NCBI GenBank assembly: GCA_024402765.1
Contig: JAKSTC010000002.1
Span: forward strand, 34,037-98,036
Direction of reading: 5' to 3'
DNA length: 64,000 bases
From: Alphaproteobacteria bacterium
GTDB lineage: Bacteria; Pseudomonadota; Alphaproteobacteria; Rs-D84
The notes beneath the pieces are model-generated. The model had not been told where the DNA came from. It searched no databases and was given only the letters and a program-made list of their open reading frames with translations. Position 1 is the first letter of the stretch. The number at the start of each line of letters is the position of its first letter. This document shows, piece by piece, positions 33,311 to 62,908 of the stretch. The position numbers were made by a program, and so were the translations under genes.

Positions 33311-36085
33311 TTATTTTCCCCAATCTGGGCCAATTACGTATTCGGCAACCAATGGCACAGATAATTCCGTTATGTGTTCCATTTTGTCTTTGATTAAATC
33401 TGCAAAATGTTGTGCGACTGATTCATCACATTCAAATATTATTTCATCATGAACCTGCATAATCATATGAATTTTGTCGCTGTTCGGTTTTACAATTTCA
33501 TTATTTATTACAATCATCGCGCGACGCATAATATCCGCCTCAAAACCCTGAATTGGTGCGTTGATTGCGGCACGCATTGCGTATGCACGCAGACGGGGGC
33601 TGGCAACTTCTGGCAATTCTATTCTGCGTCCCCATGGTGTATAAACGCATGCATTGTCAGCGGCGAATTTTTTTATACTGTCAATATATGCTTTTACTTC
33701 GGGCAGGCCGTTCATATACGAATCGATGATTTCGCGTGCAGCACTGCGTGAAATACCTAACTGGGACGATAGCCCAAAAGACGACACACCATAAATTATT
33801 GAAAAGTTGACAGTTTTTGCAGCGCGGCGCATTTCGCGTGGCACAGGTTCGTTTTGTGGGATATTAAATATCTTGCGCGCGGTTTGTTCGTGAATGTCGG
33901 TGCCTGTTAAAAAAGTTTCCTTGAACGTTTTAACATTTGCAACATCCGCCAACAGACGCAATTGAATTTGTGAATAGTCAACCGATATCAAGACGCGACC
34001 CGTTGGTGCAACAAAGCATTTTCTGATTTCTTCACCCAGTTCGGTTTTAATCGGAATATTTTGCAGGTTTGGATCGCGCGACGACAGGCGACCTGTATTT
34101 GTGCTGGTCTGCATATATGTTGTGTGAATCCGGCCGTCATTTGCAATTTGTTTTGGCAGGGAATCTGTATAAGTTCCCGCGAGTTTTGCCACAGAACGCC
34201 AATTCAAAATTTTTTCTATGACCGGATGCGTGTCGGATAAATCGTTCAATGTATCTGCATCGGTTGAACGTTTTTTGTTTGCAGGCAAATGTAGTTCGTC
34301 AAATAAAATTGATGCCAGTTGTTTCGGACTCGCAATATTAAACTCATGCCCGACCATTTCCCAAATTTCGTTTTGTAATTTATCAAGTTGTGCGTGGAAC
34401 ACATTTGATAAATTATTTAACTTTGATTGGTTGACCAATACACCGATTCTTTCCATAGAAACCAATATCGGCAACAATGGTAAATCACATGTTTCATAAA
34501 GTTGTTTTAATTTTTCGTTTGCGTTTAATTGTGGGCGCATTAAATCATACAGGGCAAAACAACAGATAGCATCTTCGGCGGCATATGGTGTCGCAACAGA
34601 AATATCTAATTCTGCGAAATTCCGATTCACATCACGCACAGATGCGTCAAACAAAGACGCAAAGGAAATATTGTTATGATTCAAATACTTTAATGCCAAT
34701 TCGTCCAGGCCATGCCCGTGTAATGTTCCATGCAGAATATATGATAACAACATAGTATCATCAATGTTTGTAATCTGGGAAATGTCCCAACCCATATTGG
34801 CGAGTATGTGTAAATCGTATTTCAGATTATGCCCAACCTTTACAATGTTTTTGTCTGTAAATATCGGCCAGAGTTTTTTATAAACTGTTGCAATATCCAA
34901 TTGATTTGGTGTGGAAATACTATCGCCAAATAAATCGTTGCTGATGCTAATGTGATTCAGTGGAATATAACACCCATGCGTTGAATCATACGCCAAAGAC
35001 AGCCCGACGATTTTTGCATTGATTTGGTTTAGTCCGGTTGTTTCAGTATCAAACGCAACGACACCTGTGATATGTGATAAAAATTTATCCAGTTGCGCAA
35101 CAGTTGAAATTGTTTCAAATTCCATTTTTAATTCAGGGGCGGTTTGTGCGACGGGTGCACCAGATACGACAAAGTCGGTGGGACAGACGGAGCCCGCATA
35201 AGAAAATTCTTGCGCTGGGGCATCACTATTCATCGGAAATAGTTTTAAAATTTTATCAGCCAAAGATTTACTTTCAATTTGCACCTGAACAAATTCCAGC
35301 GCAGATTTTGTGTTAAACACAAATGGTGTAATGTTTAATCCGTCCAGGTCAACGTCAGTCTTTAATGTAACGAGTTTGCGAGAGATATACGCCATATCTT
35401 TACCGGCAATTAACATATTGCGTGTGCGTTCATTTGGAATTTTATCAATGTTCGCATACAGGTTGTCTAAACTGCCAAATTCAGAAATTAATTCGGTCGC
35501 TTTTTTTGGACCAATGCCGGCAACCCCCGGCACATTATCAGACGAATCGCCCATTAAACTTTGGACATCAACCACCTGGTCTGGACGAACACCGAATTTT
35601 TCTAAAACTTCTTTTTCGCGCACATCATGTTGTTTCATACCGTCATATAAAAATACACAATCAGACACCAGTTGCATTAAATCCTTGTCACTCGTAATGA
35701 TTCGTGTTGCATCGGTTGTGTTGCAATTTTGTTTTGCGATTGTTGCGATGACATCATCGGCCTCAACCCCCGGGATACATAATACCGGCATACCCAATGC
35801 CGCCATACCGGTTCGTATCAGGGCACCTTGGGCAATTAAATCAGCAGGTGTTTCATGACGGTTTGCCTTGTAGTTGGGATAAATATCCTGGCGGAAAGTT
35901 TGACGTGACGCATCAAACACACATACGAATTTATCATCGGGTTTTGCAGCGGACAACAGGGGCAAAACCATATTGAAAAAGCCATAAACTGCACCCGTTG
36001 GTGTGCCATCAGACCGTGTCAGGCGTGAATGAACACCATAATAGGCACGAAACAATAAAGAATTTCCATCAATCAGTGTTAACAT
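33311..36085 (-). CDS. polA: DNA polymerase I
   Basis: 924 aa with a 5' nuclease N-terminus, a 3'-5' exonuclease (FDTETTGL) and a polymerase domain (RRAAKTVNFSIIYG, QVHDE). Confidence 0.95.
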   Translation of the reverse strand: MLTLIDGNSLLFRAYYGVHSRLTRSDGTPTGAVYGFFNMVLPLLSAAKPDDKFVCVFDASRQTFRQDIYPNYKANRHETPADLIAQGALIRTGMAALGMPVLCIPGVEADDVIATIAKQNCNTTDATRIITSDKDLMQLVSDCVFLYDGMKQHDVREKEVLEKFGVRPDQVVDVQSLMGDSSDNVPGVAGIGPKKATELISEFGSLDNLYANIDKIPNERTRNMLIAGKDMAYISRKLVTLKTDVDLDGLNITPFVFNTKSALEFVQVQIESKSLADKILKLFPMNSDAPAQEFSYAGSVCPTDFVVSGAPVAQTAPELKMEFETISTVAQLDKFLSHITGVVAFDTETTGLNQINAKIVGLSLAYDSTHGCYIPLNHISISNDLFGDSISTPNQLDIATVYKKLWPIFTDKNIVKVGHNLKYDLHILANMGWDISQITNIDDTMLLSYILHGTLHGHGLDELALKYLNHNNISFASLFDASVRDVNRNFAELDISVATPYAAEDAICCFALYDLMRPQLNANEKLKQLYETCDLPLLPILVSMERIGVLVNQSKLNNLSNVFHAQLDKLQNEIWEMVGHEFNIASPKQLASILFDELHLPANKKRSTDADTLNDLSDTHPVIEKILNWRSVAKLAGTYTDSLPKQIANDGRIHTTYMQTSTNTGRLSSRDPNLQNIPIKTELGEEIRKCFVAPTGRVLISVDYSQIQLRLLADVANVKTFKETFLTGTDIHEQTARKIFNIPQNEPVPREMRRAAKTVNFSIIYGVSSFGLSSQLGISRSAAREIIDSYMNGLPEVKAYIDSIKKFAADNACVYTPWGRRIELPEVASPRLRAYAMRAAINAPIQGFEADIMRRAMIVINNEIVKPNSDKIHMIMQVHDEIIFECDESVAQHFADLIKDKMEHITELSVPLVAEYVIGPDWGK

Positions 36086-45736: not shown

Positions 45737-46582
45737 ATGAAACGGTTGTTTTTAATTTTATGTTTAATGACGATATGTAAAATATCATACGCTGATATTG
45801 CATCAGTGGGCTATGTGGATAGTGTTGCTGCGACCAAGCAAGACACGATAACCGATATTGCAACGATTCGTTCTGGTGCGGCGGCGGGCGCAACGGCGGT
45901 TCAACCATCATCATTATCAACGGTCGCAACCAGTGGTTCGTATAATGATTTATCAAACAAACCGACGATACCCACCGTTCCGACGACCATAAGTTCATTT
46001 ACGAACGATAGTGGCTACATAACGAACAGTTACCACGATTCAACGAAACAGGATAAACTACCAAATGTGCCCGGTAACAATGGAAAGTATAAACTGGTAT
46101 GGAATAATAATACTGGACAATTGGGATGGGAACTTGAACAATTTTCACTAACCTGTTCCAGTGGTACATACGACATCGGCTTTAGTCAGTGCATAGATCC
46201 CGCAACGAATGGTTCGGAATATGGCTTTATGAATGATAGCACTGGTGATAGGGGTCCAAACAGTAGTAATACTGACACCTATGGCCTAACGACAGACCAA
46301 ACCTGGGGTGTGACATTTAGTTATGGCATAGTAAAGGGCATAGCATCATGTAATGGCACACCTGGTACATATGCACAATCTACGAACCAAAACTTTAACC
46401 AAACAGATAAGGGACAGTATTGCTGGTGTAAAATGACGTTTCCGGCTGTGTCGCGTTGGGTGTTCTACAACGACCTCGGCGATGCGGCCAATTGCGCGGG
46501 CGGTTGTGCGTACTCCTGCGGGGGCTACGTTCAGAACGGCTCGTACTTTCGTACTAGCGTCTTTTCGTCCGTCGGGCAATAA
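45737..46582 (+). CDS. Secreted protein: tail-fibre-like N-terminal half plus a C-terminal DGR-target-type variable module (orphan VR-like)
   Basis: Signal peptide MKRLFLILCLM. SGSYNDLSNKPTIPT-type repeat. C-terminus QYCWCKMTFPAVSRWVF...FRTSVFSSVGQ is homologous to the VR-bearing protein at 59417..59845. The last about 136 nt (46441-46576) are GC-rich. Confidence 0.7.
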   Translation: MKRLFLILCLMTICKISYADIASVGYVDSVAATKQDTITDIATIRSGAAAGATAVQPSSLSTVATSGSYNDLSNKPTIPTVPTTISSFTNDSGYITNSYHDSTKQDKLPNVPGNNGKYKLVWNNNTGQLGWELEQFSLTCSSGTYDIGFSQCIDPATNGSEYGFMNDSTGDRGPNSSNTDTYGLTTDQTWGVTFSYGIVKGIASCNGTPGTYAQSTNQNFNQTDKGQYCWCKMTFPAVSRWVFYNDLGDAANCAGGCAYSCGGYVQNGSYFRTSVFSSVGQ

Positions 46583-46611: not shown

Positions 46612-46756
46612 GTTTTCTTGCACTTACTCCCCTTTGTCATTGCGAGCGCAGCGAAGCAATCCAGTCATAATAATGTATAAAAACATATTCACTGGATTGC
46701 CACGGTCACTATCGTTCCCTCGCAATGACAAAAGAGACTAAGAACAACAGAACACG
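46612..46756. repeat. Palindromic MITE/REP-like element
   Basis: Left arm cttactcccctttgtcattgcgag pairs with right arm ctcgcaatgacaaaagagactaag. Inner hairpin gcaatccagt...actggattgc. Its module cttactc(t/c)c(t/c)tttgtcat also occurs in the repeats at 58091 and 62411. Confidence 0.8.
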
Positions 46757-57054: not shown

Positions 57055-58047
57055 ATGACGGATATAAATAATCAAATTGCGATATATATTGCTGAAAATG
57101 GACAGACACAAATTGATGTTCGTGTCCAAGATGACACGGTATGGTTGAACCAGGAACAAATGTCGTTACTGTTCAACACAGATAGAAGTGCAATTACAAA
57201 ACATATAAAAAACATAATACAAGATTGTGAATTGGCGGAAAACGCAACTTGTGCCAAAATTGCACAAGTTCAAAAAGAAGGTAATAGAACGATAACTCGT
57301 AACGTAAATTATTATAACCTGGATATGATTCTGTCTGTGGGATATCGGGTAAAATCTAAAACTGCAACGCAATTTCGTATCTGGGCGACCAAAACATTAA
57401 AAGATTATTTGTTACAGGGTTATGTCGTAAATCAAAAAATGCTGTCCGAGCAAAAATCTAAGATGTTGATGTTGCAGAAAACCATTGATTTAATGACGCG
57501 CAGTATTGAAAATCAAACCTCCAATCTGGACCAGGCACAACAGGTATCACGTGTTCTGAACGATTTTGTCCAAGGGTTAAATTTATTGGACGATTTTGAC
57601 CATAAAACTTTGGACACAAACGGTAAAACCAAATCAACGGCAACCGTAATCGAACCAGATGAATTTTTATCTGTGGTTGATAAAATGAAGGGCAGTTTTG
57701 CCAGTGATGTATTTGCCAAACCCAAAGACGACAGTTTTTATAGTTCAATCGGTCAGATATATCAAACATTTGATGGCAAAGACCTGTATCCAACATTGGA
57801 AGAAAAAGCAGCGAATTTACTTTACTTGATTGTCAAAAATCACAGTTTTGTTGATGGTAATAAACGCATAGGTGCCAGTTGTTTTCTGTATTTCTTGGAT
57901 AAAAACAATATGCTATATGGTGATAACGGCCCGAATATCATAGATAGTGCGACATTATTTGCACTGACTTTATTGATAGCCGAAAGTAATCCGTCCGAAG
58001 CAGATACCGTCAAACAGGTTGTTATTAGTGTGTTAAATCGCGGATAA
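57055..58047 (+). CDS. RhuM-family protein with a C-terminal Fic/Doc domain
   Basis: N-terminus (IAIYIAENGQTQIDVRVQDDTVWLNQEQMSLLF...YYNLDMILSVGYRVKS..ATQFRIWAT) is RhuM-like. The C-terminus HSFVDGNKRIGASCFLYFL is an intact Doc-type motif. Confidence 0.8.
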   Translation: MTDINNQIAIYIAENGQTQIDVRVQDDTVWLNQEQMSLLFNTDRSAITKHIKNIIQDCELAENATCAKIAQVQKEGNRTITRNVNYYNLDMILSVGYRVKSKTATQFRIWATKTLKDYLLQGYVVNQKMLSEQKSKMLMLQKTIDLMTRSIENQTSNLDQAQQVSRVLNDFVQGLNLLDDFDHKTLDTNGKTKSTATVIEPDEFLSVVDKMKGSFASDVFAKPKDDSFYSSIGQIYQTFDGKDLYPTLEEKAANLLYLIVKNHSFVDGNKRIGASCFLYFLDKNNMLYGDNGPNIIDSATLFALTLLIAESNPSEADTVKQVVISVLNRG

Positions 58048-58090
58048 TAAGATTAACTTGTTGTATAACTTTTACAATTGTTGGTTATTT

Positions 58091-58133
58091 TGTGCTTACT
58101 CTCTTTTGTCATCCCGATGGCTATCGGGACCGC
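58091..58133. repeat. Palindromic repeat element (same family as 46612 and 62411)
   Basis: tgtgcttactctcttttgtcat followed by the hairpin cccgat-ggct-atcggg. Confidence 0.7.
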
Positions 58134-58517: not shown

Positions 58518-59396
58518 ATGAAACGATTATTTGTTGTGTTATGTTTAACAATGATGATCGGAACATCGTTTGGTGCGACATGCCCGAATAATATGTCAGA
58601 AAGTTCTATATTCAGTGGGACATTTTCTTCTGTTTCCCCAGAAATGACATGCGGTTCCGGTTTTCAATTATTTGAATTACCAGAATCGATGGTTGTTTAT
58701 ACCAGTGGCCATGTAATGGCAAATCCAGAACCACTGTGTCCCATGGACCAGCATTGGGAAAATGGCGAATGTGTTCCGTATGTTCGTGGGATTTGTGATA
58801 ATGGTTTTTCCCAGGTTGCGGTTGACAATAGCACGTTTTACAAACTGGATGTGAACAACCAGTGCACATCTGGCTATCAAAGGGCGGACATTCCGACCAA
58901 TGTTGTATATGGCATTGTTAACGGCATATTGCTGGGGACGGGGGTGACGTTGTGTGGTGATGGTTATCGTATGGTTGGTGACACATGCACACCGTATAAT
59001 ACGGGTGATTGTCCGAACGGGATGTTTGCGTATGAACCGGGTGCGGATACTTTTTCAGCAATAGTAAATGGTGCGTGTGCTTCGGGTTATGAATTGGGGA
59101 TTGATAATAAATCGTGTGGTGATTCAACTGTCGCGGATGGCAAATGTGCGGTGTTATGTGATGCGGGCGAAAATTGGACATACGGTGGTGTATGTTCGGC
59201 GCGTTGCACGACGAATGGCATTCGGATATTGCATGCGGGGGATGTTGCGTTCCAGACGTATGCGAACAAAACGACAGAACATGCATTGGTGTTTGATAAT
59301 GGGGTGGGCCGTTGTTATGGCAACATGACGACGGGCCGCGCCAGTGGGACATTAAATGTGGATGTTCGTGGCACAACATGGCACGTAACAGAATAA
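58518..59396 (+). CDS. Secreted cysteine-rich protein (292 aa), first gene of the DGR target operon
   Basis: Signal peptide MKRLFVVLCLTMMIGTSFGA, whose 5' region is shared with 45737..46582. Repeated C-x-G/N...C units. Lies 20 nt upstream of the VR-bearing gene. Confidence 0.6.
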   Translation: MKRLFVVLCLTMMIGTSFGATCPNNMSESSIFSGTFSSVSPEMTCGSGFQLFELPESMVVYTSGHVMANPEPLCPMDQHWENGECVPYVRGICDNGFSQVAVDNSTFYKLDVNNQCTSGYQRADIPTNVVYGIVNGILLGTGVTLCGDGYRMVGDTCTPYNTGDCPNGMFAYEPGADTFSAIVNGACASGYELGIDNKSCGDSTVADGKCAVLCDAGENWTYGGVCSARCTTNGIRILHAGDVAFQTYANKTTEHALVFDNGVGRCYGNMTTGRASGTLNVDVRGTTWHVTE

Positions 59397-59416: not shown

Positions 59417-59845
59417 ATGAAAAGGGGTGTAATATTAACGATTGTTGGTGCGGTGATGACGACCGCGACGTATGCGGGCACAATGTGCAGTAATAACGAC
59501 TATTTAACGGTTGTTTTAGACCCAACGATAGAGGGAACGACATATACATACAATGCGGGTGCGATGACATGGAAAACAGTGTTTCCGTATGGAAATGTAT
59601 CGGGTATTGCAGTATGTAACGACACATCGGGCAGTTATGCTGTATCATCAACAACGGAACAGGTGGAAACTGGTGGTAAAATGTGTTGGTGTAAGATGAC
59701 ACATCCGGCTGTTTCGCTTTGGGTGTTCCACCGCGCGTACTCGTCGTCTTCCGATTGCGCGGACTATTGCGCGAACTACTGCGGGCTCGCCGTCCAGCAC
59801 TACTCGGTCTTTCGTTCCGGCGTTTTTTCGTCGGTCGGCAAATGA
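59417..59845 (+). CDS. DGR target protein (142 aa, secreted) carrying the VR at its C-terminus
   Basis: Signal peptide. ...GKMCWCKMTHPAVSLWVFHRAYSSSSDCADYCANYCGLAVQHYSVFRSGVFSSVGK. The last 136 nt before the final Lys codon match the TR. Confidence 0.85.
   Translation: MKRGVILTIVGAVMTTATYAGTMCSNNDYLTVVLDPTIEGTTYTYNAGAMTWKTVFPYGNVSGIAVCNDTSGSYAVSSTTEQVETGGKMCWCKMTHPAVSLWVFHRAYSSSSDCADYCANYCGLAVQHYSVFRSGVFSSVGK
59704..59839 (+). repeat. DGR variable repeat (VR)
   Basis: Gap-free 136-nt alignment to 60106-60241 with 13 mismatches, all at TR adenines. Confidence 0.9.
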
Positions 59846-59966
59846 TGATAGGTATCACGCGAATCGCAAAACGAATCGCGTAACCACGCCAAAGCAGGGC
59901 GCAGGCGTGGCAAAAAAAGTTTCTGTGTGTGTTGCGCGTTATGCGTAACACACACAGCGAAGTGCG

Positions 59967-59998
59967 CCCCCACACACGCCATTTGGCGTGTGTGGGGG
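59967..59998. other. GC-rich perfect hairpin (14-bp stem, ATTT loop) downstream of the VR
   Basis: cccccacacacgcc-attt-ggcgtgtgtggggg. Confidence 0.7.
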
Positions 59999-60012
59999 GT
60001 GAAAACAAGGGG

Positions 60013-60037
60013 GTGACGGGGGAATTTCCCCCGTCAC
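60013..60037. other. GC-rich hairpin (10-bp stem)
   Basis: gtgacggggg-aattt-cccccgtcac. Confidence 0.7.
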
Positions 60038-60105
60038 AGAAAAGTTTCGGTGTAAAAAGCCGAAAAGGAGTGTATCGCTGTATACAGTTGTTGTCGTTTT
60101 CGGTT

Positions 60106-60241
60106 TCCGGCTGTTTCGCTTTGGGTGTTCAACAACGCGAACTCGTCGTCTTCCGATTGCGCGGACAATTGCGCGAACAACTGCGGGAACAACGTCCAGA
60201 ACAACTCGGACTTTCGTTCCGGCGTTTTTTCGTCGGTCGGC
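60106..60241 (+). repeat. DGR template repeat (TR)
   Basis: Non-coding copy of the VR in which the variable positions are AAC/AAT codons (..ttc AAC AAC gcg AAC .. gac AAT tgc gcg AAC AAC tgc ggg AAC AAC gtc cag AAC AAC tcg GAC ..). Confidence 0.9.
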
Positions 60242-60479
60242 TTCTTGGTGGTTTGGTATCTTTTTCGCCAGAAAAAGTTTTGCTAACTTGCGGGTCAATT
60301 GGAAAGCACTTTATGTGCGTGTACAACCTTTTCATCAAGGTGGAGCGATACGTCCTGTTGCCTGGGTTTAATCTTTAAATCCAGAACAACAAATACAAAA
60401 CGCAAGGGATATCTGGGCCAGTAGTTTATATCTGTATCGTGACGAAAGCCCGGGGTATCCGATTAAGAGAGAGAAAAAG

Positions 60480-60806
60480 ATGACAATAGATGAAATAAAA
60501 CAGGTCCAGACCCAGGAACGTCCGCGTTTTTCGGTCTTTGCACGGGATAAATTGCCAATGCCCGGGGTGAAAAAACGATTGGATGAAATATTAAATCGTG
60601 AAATTTTAATTACTGATTTCAGGGTAACAAATTCAAAACAACAACAAAACCGACACTGTCTGCAATTACAATTCGTTTTGGATGATGAAGTCTGTGTTTG
60701 TTTCACCGGCAGCAGTGTTTTACTTAACCAAATACAAGAAGCCAAAGATAATATCCCTTTTCACACAATCGTTGTAAAAATAGATAGATATTATTCTTTA
60801 TCCTGA
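60480..60806 (+). CDS. DGR-associated small ORF (108 aa), not recognisably Avd
   Basis: RBS agagagagaaaaag before the ATG. Its stop (60804-60806) is 2 nt before the RT ATG. The composition is not basic or helical in the way Avd is. Confidence 0.5.
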   Translation: MTIDEIKQVQTQERPRFSVFARDKLPMPGVKKRLDEILNREILITDFRVTNSKQQQNRHCLQLQFVLDDEVCVCFTGSSVLLNQIQEAKDNIPFHTIVVKIDRYYSLS

Positions 60807-60808
60807 TT

Positions 60809-61882
60809 ATGGGGGGCGGCATGAAAACTTATAAAAATCTGTGGGATAAATTCATTTCACGCGAAAATTTTGATTTGGCGGCAAAAAAAGCAATTAAAAG
60901 TAAGAAAAATAAACGTTGCACAAAAAAATTCTTGGAACACTATGACGAAAATATAGAAAAATTACGTCAATCTTTGATGGATGGAACATTTAAAACTTCG
61001 GAATACAGAATATTCAAAGTATATGAACCCAAAGAACGCGAAATCTATGAATTGCCGTTGTATCCTGATCATATCTTGCACCACGCGCTGATTAATATTT
61101 TGGGGCCAATTTGGAAAAATATGTTTATTTCTGATTCTTATGCTTGCATTCCGGACAAGGGTTTGCACGCTGCATCAAAACGCATTATGACGTTCGTGCG
61201 CAGAAATAAATATGTTTTACAATGCGATGTGAAAAAATTTTTCCCATCAATAAACCACGATATAATGATGAATATTATTCAACAAAAAATTAGTGACCGC
61301 CGCCTGTTGCGTGTTTTGGATAATATTGTCCGTTCGGTCGGTGGGGGAACAAATCTGCCCATTGGTAATTTAACCAGTCAATGGTTGGCAAATGTCTATC
61401 TGAACCAATTGGATATGTTTGTAAAGCACGAATTACATGTCCATGATTATTTGCGTTACTGTGATGATTTCTGTCTGTTCGGAAATAGCAAAAAACTGTT
61501 GCGTAAAATGGAATCTGAAATTGTGGTGTTTCTGGAAAATAAATTAAATTTGCGTTTGTCTAAATCTTGTATGCGTTTGGTGGCGGATGGCGTGAATATG
61601 ATTGGATACCGACATTTTAGGAATTTTATCTTGCTGCGGAAACGTTCTGTGCGAAATATCCGTAAACGACTATTTAATATCGCGCGCTATGATGATTATG
61701 GCGAACATTCTGTGGGACAAATCGCGTCCAGTTATGGGTGGCTTAAGCACGCTTCGTCATTTCATTTCCGACGAAGTTTATGTAATAAAATACGCGTATT
61801 CTCGGAATACGCGTATTTTTTTATCCTGTCCGGCATCTTACCAGACCGCATCCAAAACATTTGTGCGATATGTAGCATTTGA
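60809..61882 (+). CDS. DGR reverse transcriptase
   Basis: RT motifs, including LRYCDDFCLFG (YxDD) and PIGNLTSQWLANVYL (the DGR-specific motif 4). About 355 aa. An alternative start at 60821 (MKTYKNL) follows a GGGGGG RBS. Confidence 0.9.
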   Translation: MGGGMKTYKNLWDKFISRENFDLAAKKAIKSKKNKRCTKKFLEHYDENIEKLRQSLMDGTFKTSEYRIFKVYEPKEREIYELPLYPDHILHHALINILGPIWKNMFISDSYACIPDKGLHAASKRIMTFVRRNKYVLQCDVKKFFPSINHDIMMNIIQQKISDRRLLRVLDNIVRSVGGGTNLPIGNLTSQWLANVYLNQLDMFVKHELHVHDYLRYCDDFCLFGNSKKLLRKMESEIVVFLENKLNLRLSKSCMRLVADGVNMIGYRHFRNFILLRKRSVRNIRKRLFNIARYDDYGEHSVGQIASSYGWLKHASSFHFRRSLCNKIRVFSEYAYFFILSGILPDRIQNICAICSI

Positions 61883-62269
61883 TTGAATTGCCGCACCACA
61901 ATCAGACGCACACCCCGACGCACATGCCGATTTGTCACTGTATGATTTTAAATATACCCAATACGATGATATCGGTCGTTGCATTTCACACCAACAATGA
62001 ACACCTTCGTCCGCGGCAACCGTATATAATGCCGTGTTCGCTGTTCCTGTTGTCCCACTGATGTCATTACATGCCGCATTGCCAGTTATTGTATATTGCG
62101 GAAATGTCGCAGACCATGTTTTGTTTGTCGCATTCGTCACACTATGCGATGTGCCGTTGGTTGATTTACTAACACTCGCAATATATGTGCTTTTATGCTT
62201 ACACATCATGGTCGCAAAAGATGGGGTAATGCAAAACATACATAGCAAAAATACTATGATTTTTTTCAT
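61838..62269 (-). CDS. Paralog of the DGR target protein (143 aa, secreted), with a diverged VR-like C-terminus
   Basis: Signal peptide MKKIIVFLLCMFCITPSFA. ...GVHCWCEMQRPISSYWVYLKSYSDKSACASGCASDCGAAIQSNATYRTNVLDAVW. Convergent with the RT gene and overlaps it by 45 nt. Confidence 0.7.
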   Translation of the reverse strand: MKKIIVFLLCMFCITPSFATMMCKHKSTYIASVSKSTNGTSHSVTNATNKTWSATFPQYTITGNAACNDISGTTGTANTALYTVAADEGVHCWCEMQRPISSYWVYLKSYSDKSACASGCASDCGAAIQSNATYRTNVLDAVW

Positions 62270-62410
62270 TTCTCTGTCCTATTTTATAATTTGTTACATC
62301 TATGATTATAGGATTTTATGTGATATTATGCAATAACTTTTTTATTCGTAAAAATACTTTTACTTTCTTTTATTGTTGTTCGTTCTGTTTTTGTCATTGT
62401 TCGTTCTGTT

Positions 62411-62890
62411 GCACTTACTCTCTTTTGTCATTGCGGACTTGGTCCGCAATAGGGTCTATGAAATTAATACTTTGGCATAAAAACGAACCCCACAACCCAG
62501 GTCTTAAAGTCCCTGTTCCGGCCTGCGCTGGAATGACAAACAAGGTCCGCAATAAAAGAAAATTCCACAGCATAACGACATACTTTTTTGTCATTGCGGA
62601 CTTGGTCCGCAATAGGGCTAAGAAATTACAGTGTTCGTCACAAAATCAGTGTTTGTTATAATGGGTAAAAAAACACAGAATGTGACATAAAAACGAACCC
62701 TACGACACAAGGTTTTAAAGACCCTATTGCGGACCAAGTCCGCAATGACAAAATTTATTTGCATAAATTTTGTAAAACAAAAAATCTGTCTACGAAATAC
62801 TTGACAAGCACAGAAATGACAAAAAACATCGGGATGACAACCGTCCGCAATAGGGTCTATGAAATTAATACTTTGGCATAAAAACGAACC
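62411..62890. repeat. Array of nested palindromic repeats (same family as 46612 and 58091)
   Basis: Hairpin core attgcggac-ttg-gtccgcaat at 62430-62450 and 62593-62613, with a variant at 62726-62746. A 48-nt direct repeat gtccgcaatagggtctatgaaattaatactttggcataaaaacgaacc at 62442-62489 and 62843-62890. A gtcattccagcgcaggccgg-type module at about 62510-62540. Confidence 0.85.
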
Positions 62891-62905
62891 GCCAAATCGG
62901 CGGTG
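62884..62905 (-). terminator. Terminator after lptB
   Basis: On the minus strand, ccgcc-gattt-ggcgg followed by a T-rich run. Confidence 0.5.
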
Positions 62906-62908
62906 GTT

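Follow-up and report, generated by a model that had tools for sequence, protein, structure and literature searches.

Diversity-generating retroelements (DGRs) are carried by bacterial chromosomes as well as by phages; the chromosomal DGRs of Legionella (LdtA), Treponema (TvpA) and Bacteroides (pilus-tip adhesins) diversify secreted or surface proteins, their targets are folded as C-type lectins (CLec), and their cassettes use the accessory protein Avd, some of them with HRDC or MSL. The prototype is the element of phage BPP-1, arranged mtd-avd-TR-brt, in which the template repeat (TR) lies between avd and the reverse transcriptase (RT) gene, and the variable repeat (VR) is at the 3' end of the target gene mtd. 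A third set of relatives comprises over 150 loci in IMG/VR together with ANMV-1, the first archaeal-virus DGR to be described (Paul et al. 2015, PMC4372165); here the order is target-TR-RT-accessory and the targets are Mtd-like CLec tail-fibre proteins. Here we analyse a DGR cassette in a 64,000-nucleotide stretch of an alphaproteobacterial genome (contig JAKSTC010000002.1 of assembly GCA_024402765.1, forward-strand positions 34,037 to 98,036; we call the whole stretch the window, and all coordinates below are window positions). The element is very probably a DGR, functional or very recently so, in the chromosome of a gut alphaproteobacterium that resembles Candidatus Enterousia. An earlier note on the same DNA had called this DGR complete and placed the RT gene 0.57 kb beyond the TR; it was right on both counts (567 nt separate 60241 from 60809), yet the gap contains a structured RNA and a 108-aa accessory gene, both of which it had missed.

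With BPP-1 the cassette has in common an RT that is homologous along its entire length, with the signature motifs and the adenine-tuning residues, a TR of about 135 nt with AAY codons, a VR at the 3' end of the target gene, a GC-rich, adenine-free 3' boundary that is followed by a hairpin, and a structured RNA of 140–240 nt on the 3' side of the TR. It differs from BPP-1 in being chromosomal and not phage-borne, in its gene order (target-TR-accessory-RT), in having a 108-aa protein of predicted OB-like fold and no Avd, and in a target that appears to be neither Mtd-like nor CLec. With ANMV-1 and the IMG/VR loci it shares the RT lineage (33–47% identity), an accessory family that adjoins the RT, a similar hairpin RNA (UAGUAG...GAAC) before the first open reading frame (ORF), for which the matches are weak and in ANMV-1 non-significant, and the lack of a detected Avd-family protein; it differs from them in the order of its parts and in its target. 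Like the DGRs of Legionella, Treponema and Bacteroides, it is cellular and acts on a protein with a signal peptide, which presumably binds ligands once secreted or displayed, but unlike theirs its target is not CLec by prediction and its cassette has no detected Avd. The features discussed below are collected in table 1.

Table 1. Features of the DGR cassette and related genes in the window.
Feature	Coordinates	Strand	Description
Variable repeat (VR)	59704–59839	+	Encodes target residues 97–141 of 142; 3' end of target gene
Template repeat (TR)	60106–60241	+	Non-coding; 24 A in 136 nt
DGR reverse transcriptase	60809–61882	+	357-aa ORF; LPIGNLTSQ, YCDD; likely start 60821
DGR target gene	59417–59845	+	142-aa secreted protein; 7 Cys (24, 67, 90, 92, 114, 118, 122); invariant CWCKMTHP
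Accessory protein (ACC)	60480–60806	+	108 aa, pI 7.7; predicted OB-like b1-b2-b3-helix-b4-b5
Structured RNA	60287–60469	+	Helix 60287–60291/60402–60406; 12-bp hairpin 60407–60418/60448–60460
Post-VR hairpin	59857–59881		9-bp stem with one A-A mismatch, 5-nt loop; 17 nt past VR end; DNA fold
Four more strong hairpins, VR-TR spacer	59884–59910, 59923–59957, 59967–59998, 60013–60037		Fold
Upstream Cys-rich protein	58518–59396	+	292 aa, signal peptide, 16 Cys after it, repeated C-x-[SD]-G-[YF] modules
Convergent target paralogue	61838–62269	-	143 aa; same 7-Cys scaffold; overlaps RT 3' end by 45 nt
Third family member	45737–46582	+	281 aa; fibre-like N-terminal extension (DIASVGYVD..., SGSYNDLSNKP...)

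When the two repeats are re-aligned at an offset of 402, they match over 136 nt without a gap, and all 13 of the mismatches between them fall at TR adenines; the same pair was recovered as a repeat family by a repeat finder run over the window. With 24 adenines among 136 bases, the chance that 13 of 13 mismatches should fall on A is 5.2e-12 (hypergeometric). In the reading frame of the target the 24 adenines all stand at first or second codon positions and none at a third, and the adenine-bearing codons are ten AAY codons and four with a single A (GAT, GAC, CAG and GAC), which is the design expected of a DGR template. The mutable VR codons are thus 14 in number (105, 106, 108, 113, 116, 117, 120, 121, 124, 125, 127, 128, 129 and 131), with a theoretical repertoire of ~15^10 x 4^4, or ~1.5e14 protein variants. 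The identity between the repeats breaks sharply on both sides, at 59703/60105 on the 5' side and at 59840/60242 on the 3' side. The TR is adenine-free over 25 nt at its 5' end and 31 nt at its 3' end, stretches that we propose act as homology arms, and the 3' stretch is GC-rich (...TTTTTTCGTCGGTCGGC). The gapless alignment with its 13 adenine-only differences, the classic AAC/AAT template design and a 3' boundary like that for initiation of mutagenic homing (IMH), all of which the earlier note had claimed, are thus reproduced in full; no non-adenine mismatch was found, and a hairpin does stand downstream of the boundary. Within the TR, positions 60156–60205 have an internal 12-nt periodicity (GCG-GAC-AAT-TGC / GCG-AAC-AAC-TGC / GGG-AAC-AAC), which codes for the x-x-C-A unit that recurs along the variable helix described below.

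The hairpin just past the VR would occupy the place of the post-IMH hairpin/cruciform that BPP-1 requires (PMC3240598, PMC4372165), and a hairpin is present about 0–22 nt after the VR end in most of nine related cassettes (that of L014 is less clear). The whole region from 59825 to 60110 has a fold of -78 kcal/mol (z = -9.3 relative to shuffles), and its four further hairpins probably insulate the TR transcript from transcription of the target gene, or terminate the latter.

The RT appears from its sequence to belong with the bRT-like RTs of DGRs. Its closest solved relative is Bordetella bRT (PDB 8ub7, E 9e-44 over residues 6–304), and the match to the best group II intron RT is far weaker (E 7e-19). 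LPIGNLTSQ of the window RT aligns with IGSLTSQ of bRT, and YCDD with YMDD, so the two motifs that had led the earlier note to a DGR-type RT hold up in alignment with the best solved relative; [I/V/L]GxxxSQ is the defined signature of DGR RTs (PMC7826257). Residues R77 and I185 are the equivalents of bRT Arg74 and Ile181, which promote misincorporation at adenines (PMC7826257). The protein also matches the phage RT family phrog_1423 in PHROGs (E 1e-102) and is 37% identical to the ANMV-1 RT; its start is placed four codons inside the ORF in table 1 because homology to relatives begins at Met5. A 15-bp terminator-like hairpin followed by a T-run (61787–61819) lies within the last 30 codons of the RT ORF, and the homology to most relatives stops just before it.

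The protein that the VR diversifies has a signal-peptide-like N-terminus, as read from its sequence, and the seven cysteines of the mature protein are conserved in a protein alignment of its family. This family has 74 homologues, all unnamed and all from metagenome-assembled genomes of gut or rumen Alphaproteobacteria, many of them labelled Candidatus Enterousia; none of the 74 has a Pfam domain, and no member was found on viral contigs. Nothing credible was found for the target, the accessory protein or the Cys-rich protein encoded upstream in Pfam, NCBIfam, PHROGs or PADLOC (weak matches to META, cEGF and TAFII28 were dismissed as noise). The AlphaFold model of the target, a prediction built with a 30-sequence family alignment, has a predicted local distance difference test score (pLDDT) above 90 over the mature domain, in which five strands are followed by helices at residues 111–128 and 130–137. 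Foldseek searches with this model matched nothing in the PDB, where the best E was 0.49, or in BFVD, where it was 0.25, and a search of the target profile against PDB sequences gave only Fab matches (E >0.7) that are spurious. In the model, mutable residues 105, 106 and 108 are at the end of a strand, nine others (113, 116, 117, 120, 121, 124, 125, 127 and 128) are on the long helix, and 129 and 131 are at its junction with the second helix and at the start of the latter. On a helical wheel the mutable positions of the helix span 140–320 degrees, and the invariant Cys114, Cys118 and Cys122 together with Ala, Gly and Val fill the other half. The variable helix is thus probably stapled by disulfides to the CWC strand in the predicted structure, showing one hypervariable face, and the most likely role of the target is ligand binding, as a module that is secreted or held at the surface. 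In sequence logic, the pairing of the C90-W-C92 strand with the C114-x3-C118-x3-C122 helix may resemble the cysteine-stabilised alpha/beta motif of defensins and scorpion toxins, but the target has a larger domain with these elements in the opposite order, and homology to the motif was not detected.

The field's default for an uncharacterised VR domain is the CLec fold, since Roux et al. (2021, PMC8144416) describe VR regions as systematically CLec and regard unknown VR domains as probably new variants of it. On that view our target would be a very divergent member, in keeping with the notorious divergence of DGR CLec domains, and the structural evidence for a different fold is a prediction from 30 sequences. 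Among 30 members of the target family, however, not one matches the CLec-type Pfam families. A profile of Mtd-like CLec VR domains, made from phage DGRs that share the RT and accessory clade of the window, gives a probability of only 0.6% in hhalign against the target family, though as a positive control the same profile recovers Mtd in the PDB at E 2e-8. The five-strand, two-helix model is confident and finds no PDB match, even though Mtd was confirmed to be in the PDB sequence copy and the structures of TvpA and other variable proteins are published; moreover, the VR encodes mostly helix. We consider a hidden CLec fold unlikely. The C-type-lectin-like fold raised in the earlier note is thus unsupported by Pfam, profile and predicted-structure comparisons, and its description of the target as unusually small was overstated, as the DGR targets in the literature are anywhere from 44 to 2697 aa long (PMC5758913) and the size of this one is not exceptional. 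It is the scaffold, predicted to be non-CLec with its diversity displayed on a helix, and not the size that appears to be the unusual feature of this target.

The Cys-rich protein has relatives just upstream of a target-family gene in about 30 related loci by tblastn, whether or not an RT is nearby, and it is a probable operon or binding partner of the target, whose odd number of cysteines leaves room for an intermolecular disulfide. Two further genes of the target family are present in the window. The convergent paralogue that overlaps the RT gene was rejected as a current target, as neither blastn nor codon-level alignment found a TR repeat in it. The 3' end of the 281-aa paralogue (46441–46575) matches the TR at 73% by blastn, but its mismatches, though enriched at A, are not limited to it (14 at A and 23 at other bases) and its 3' boundary is mismatched, and it was likewise rejected as a second target; no better or further template for it was found within the window. 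From its sequence it appears to be a diverged paralogue, or else a relic or foreign VR. Its N-terminus has a weak PHROG match. Two relatives from other metagenome-assembled genomes (P0010 and P0018) carry the same fibre-like extension and vary at the same VR positions, which suggests that the variable domain also forms the tip of a longer fibre and that DGRs elsewhere diversify proteins of this type. A search with an adenine-bias filter found no targets in trans at RT-less loci of the same genomes.

The accessory protein encoded directly before the RT, here called ACC, also gave no match in the PDB by profile search, where Avd chains should presumably be present, and no ORF of the cassette matches an Avd-type family. 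Avd is present in about 74% of DGRs, so it is not universal. The ACC model (pLDDT 89.5) is mainly beta. Its Foldseek matches are weak and mainly to OB domains (RuvBL DII, hSSB1, RPA and HIN; E 0.04–0.5, TM 0.3–0.45), and the predicted order of its secondary structure fits an OB fold, with the helix between strands 3 and 4. The published classes of DGR accessory protein are Avd, HRDC, MSL and CH1, and Avd has a four-helix-bundle protomer with a basic pI of about 9.5 (PMC5758913). In view of the profile-search negatives, the beta-rich OB-like model and the pI of ACC, it therefore appears not to be Avd and to differ from all four classes.

ACC precedes the RT in nine related alphaproteobacterial loci. 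On a phage-like contig (L051) a distant homologue instead follows the RT, beside a classic CLec-type TR/VR pair, and a scan of IMG/VR found 153 ACC relatives, from which 80 loci were kept. In 79 of these 80, an RT homologue is followed closely by ACC, both being on one strand. These are genuine DGRs: 57 of the kept loci have TR/VR pairs, in which 1103 of 1156 mismatches are at adenines, they diversify Mtd-like proteins, and the small flanking ORFs that were tested showed no Avd. ANMV-1 (KP703175.1, 36106–36402; our locus L137) has an ACC homologue directly after its RT, and another is present in the Methanosarcinales virus genome BK063673.1; both are annotated as hypothetical. A figure legend in the ANMV-1 paper names one of the ORFs "Avd", on which the text is silent (PMC4372165). 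A profile search among 1.84 billion representatives found 864 members of the ACC family, archaeal viruses included, and in three proteins (P0189, P0250 and P0252) an RVT_1 domain is followed by a C-terminal accessory domain; these are either RT and accessory proteins fused in nature or artefacts of read-through in gene calling. We found no paper that describes this family in the literature searched.

In theory ACC could be an unrelated small gene that merely travels with this RT lineage, given that it has no known domain, that its resemblance to OB proteins is weak and that its proposed role is argued from gene linkage and a predicted fold. But the adjacency holds in two opposite orders, ACC-RT in the alphaproteobacterial loci and RT-ACC in the viral ones and the archaeal virus, it persists at RT identities down to 33%, at least three proteins join the two domains in one chain, and the cassettes have no room for an Avd, none having been detected. 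We think it quite improbable that ACC is not a component of the DGR.

The 240 nt between the TR and the ACC gene are conserved across ten loci. RNAalifold finds 37 pairs in these ten sequences, and 18 of the 37 have compensatory changes, against 7.1 +/- 1.7 in column shuffles (none of 500 reaches 18) and 3–6 when pairing partners are slid; 95.8% of the cells are able to pair in the real structure and 33–46% when it is slid. The loop of the hairpin at 60407–60460 has the sequence AGUAG, of which GUA is invariant, and a near-invariant CGAAC. A covariance model (R1) of the 3' hairpin domain (60389–60469) recovers the element in the sister strain L050 (below) and in L054, and has weak matches in 17 viral loci; these are all on the coding strand, and most of them end within a few nt of where the RT begins. 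Its best match in ANMV-1 is non-significant (E 1.1) but at the position equivalent to that in the viral loci. In BPP-1 the Sp region binds Avd and supplies the priming adenosine (PMC7826257). By analogy we propose that the structured RNA of the cassette would take the role of Sp and position the RT-accessory complex, and its AGUAG loop may hold the priming site.

Evidence of activity comes from the sister strain L050 (GCA_045627945.1), whose contig is ~98% identical to the window over PFOR, CarD, the cassette and LptB/LptC. L050 and the window have the same TR and the same VR-TR spacer, while the VR differs at 17 of its 136 positions, all 17 of them TR-adenine positions, so homing must have occurred since these strains diverged and the element was recently active. 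A VR without polymorphism, which the earlier note had named as a finding that would count against a DGR, is therefore not what is seen between strains. In two more distant strains 13 of 15 and 15 of 17 VR-TR mismatches are at A, and among 19 family members the mean entropy is 2.5 bits at the 14 adenine codons, compared with 0.3 for the remainder of the VR and 0.55 for the mature protein outside it. Eight related loci of Candidatus Enterousia and gut alphaproteobacteria (L002, L003, L004, L005, L008, L012, L014 and L033) have TR/VR pairs whose mismatches are only or almost only at A, and they share the cassette order Cys-rich protein, target, TR, 108-aa ORF and RT, except for L003. In L003 (5210–8126) the order is TR, accessory gene, target with VR, and RT, and the mismatches are 16 at A and 2 at T. 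The window cassette is flanked by housekeeping genes, with no phage genes among them; the element is a chromosomal, domesticated DGR.

Several observations weigh against so favourable a view of this cassette. The evidence for its diversification is comparative, drawn from the sequences of different strains. No convincing sigma-70-type promoter was found for the TR transcript in a promoter scan, in which such sites were no commoner than chance, and the window copy of the structured RNA is without one hairpin that is present in other loci. Avd was not detected in the cassette though it is essential in the Bordetella system, and the proposal that ACC substitutes for it is built on gene linkage and a predicted fold. 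Finally, in L050 a repeat element has inserted between the accessory gene and the RT, and the called RT ORF there is extended to 407 aa, so the cassette can be disrupted in some strains. Together with the two window paralogues, which look like non-targets or former targets, such facts might be taken to mean that the DGR is a fossil, with repeats and an RT that persist as remnants and have ceased to diversify the gene. However, all of the ORFs in the window cassette are intact and the catalytic motifs are present, and an identical TR beside 17 adenine-site VR differences, in strains whose flanking sequences are about 2% apart, requires homing after the strains split; we judge a fossil to be very unlikely. 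An ordinary duplication or gene conversion between paralogues independent of the RT, for which one could cite the several target paralogues in the genome, we count as already refuted: under ordinary divergence the differences, 13 of 13 in the window and 17 of 17 between strains, would not all fall on one base of one copy, and the TR is non-coding and adjoins a DGR RT in every related cassette.

The repeats in L050 belong to a palindromic family resembling repetitive extragenic palindromes or miniature inverted-repeat transposable elements (REP/MITE-like), with the core TTTGTCATTGCGGAC...GTCCGCAAT. In the window they are present at 62373–62906, 58070–58112 and 46633–46732, and the motif occurs in 6 copies where 0.08 are expected. 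The cluster on the 3' side of the window cassette is absent from L050, whose copies are between the accessory gene and the RT instead. On the other side of the cassette, a RhuM/Fic-domain gene (57055–58047) has a match in PADLOC to PDC-S23, a candidate defence family (E 3e-129); all of the segment 57005–58104 is absent from L050, so it is a strain-variable insertion adjoining the DGR.

Taking the element as a functional or very recently functional DGR, we envisage that it would work as follows. A non-coding RNA would be transcribed that carries the TR (60106–60241) and a structured 3' extension (about 60287–60469). The bRT-like RT and the OB-like ACC would then copy the TR to cDNA, misincorporating opposite its 24 template adenines, and the cDNA would replace the VR (59704–59839), with the adenine-free homology arms, a GC-rich 3' boundary and a downstream hairpin as its guides. 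The outcome would be a target with 14 randomised codons, and the Cys-rich product of the gene just upstream is a probable partner of the variable protein in its work.

The DGR itself is of a known kind. What appears to be new, judging from the models and the sequence comparisons, is a non-CLec target that displays its diversity on a helix, an OB-like accessory protein in place of Avd, and the RNA that goes with it; neither a non-CLec helix-face target nor an OB-like helper was found described for DGRs in the literature searched. We suggest tentatively, as a possibility to which we give slightly less than even odds, that there is a lineage of Avd-less DGRs, common to this element, ANMV-1 and more than 150 viral contigs, in which an OB-like protein of ~100 aa (sometimes fused to the RT) and a hairpin RNA (UAGUAG...CGAAC) replace Avd and Sp, and that Enterousia has coupled this lineage to a non-CLec scaffold in which a sheet is joined by disulfides to a helix with a single hypermutated face.

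Two generalisations about DGRs are at stake here, namely that VRs are in C-type-lectin folds (Roux et al. 2021) and that the RT needs a pentameric Avd and the Sp RNA, and the locus would be a compact and directly testable counter-example to both. If the above reading is true, the sheet with its stapled helix would be a second structural solution to the problem of tolerating massive variation, in which a secreted domain of 120 residues displays diversity on the face of a helix. Its confirmation would widen the choice of scaffolds for DGR-based directed evolution and would provide a minimal set of RT, accessory protein and RNA for mechanistic comparison with bRT-Avd. For the organism, an uncultured alphaproteobacterium of the gut, the locus suggests that a surface or secreted system is evolving fast.

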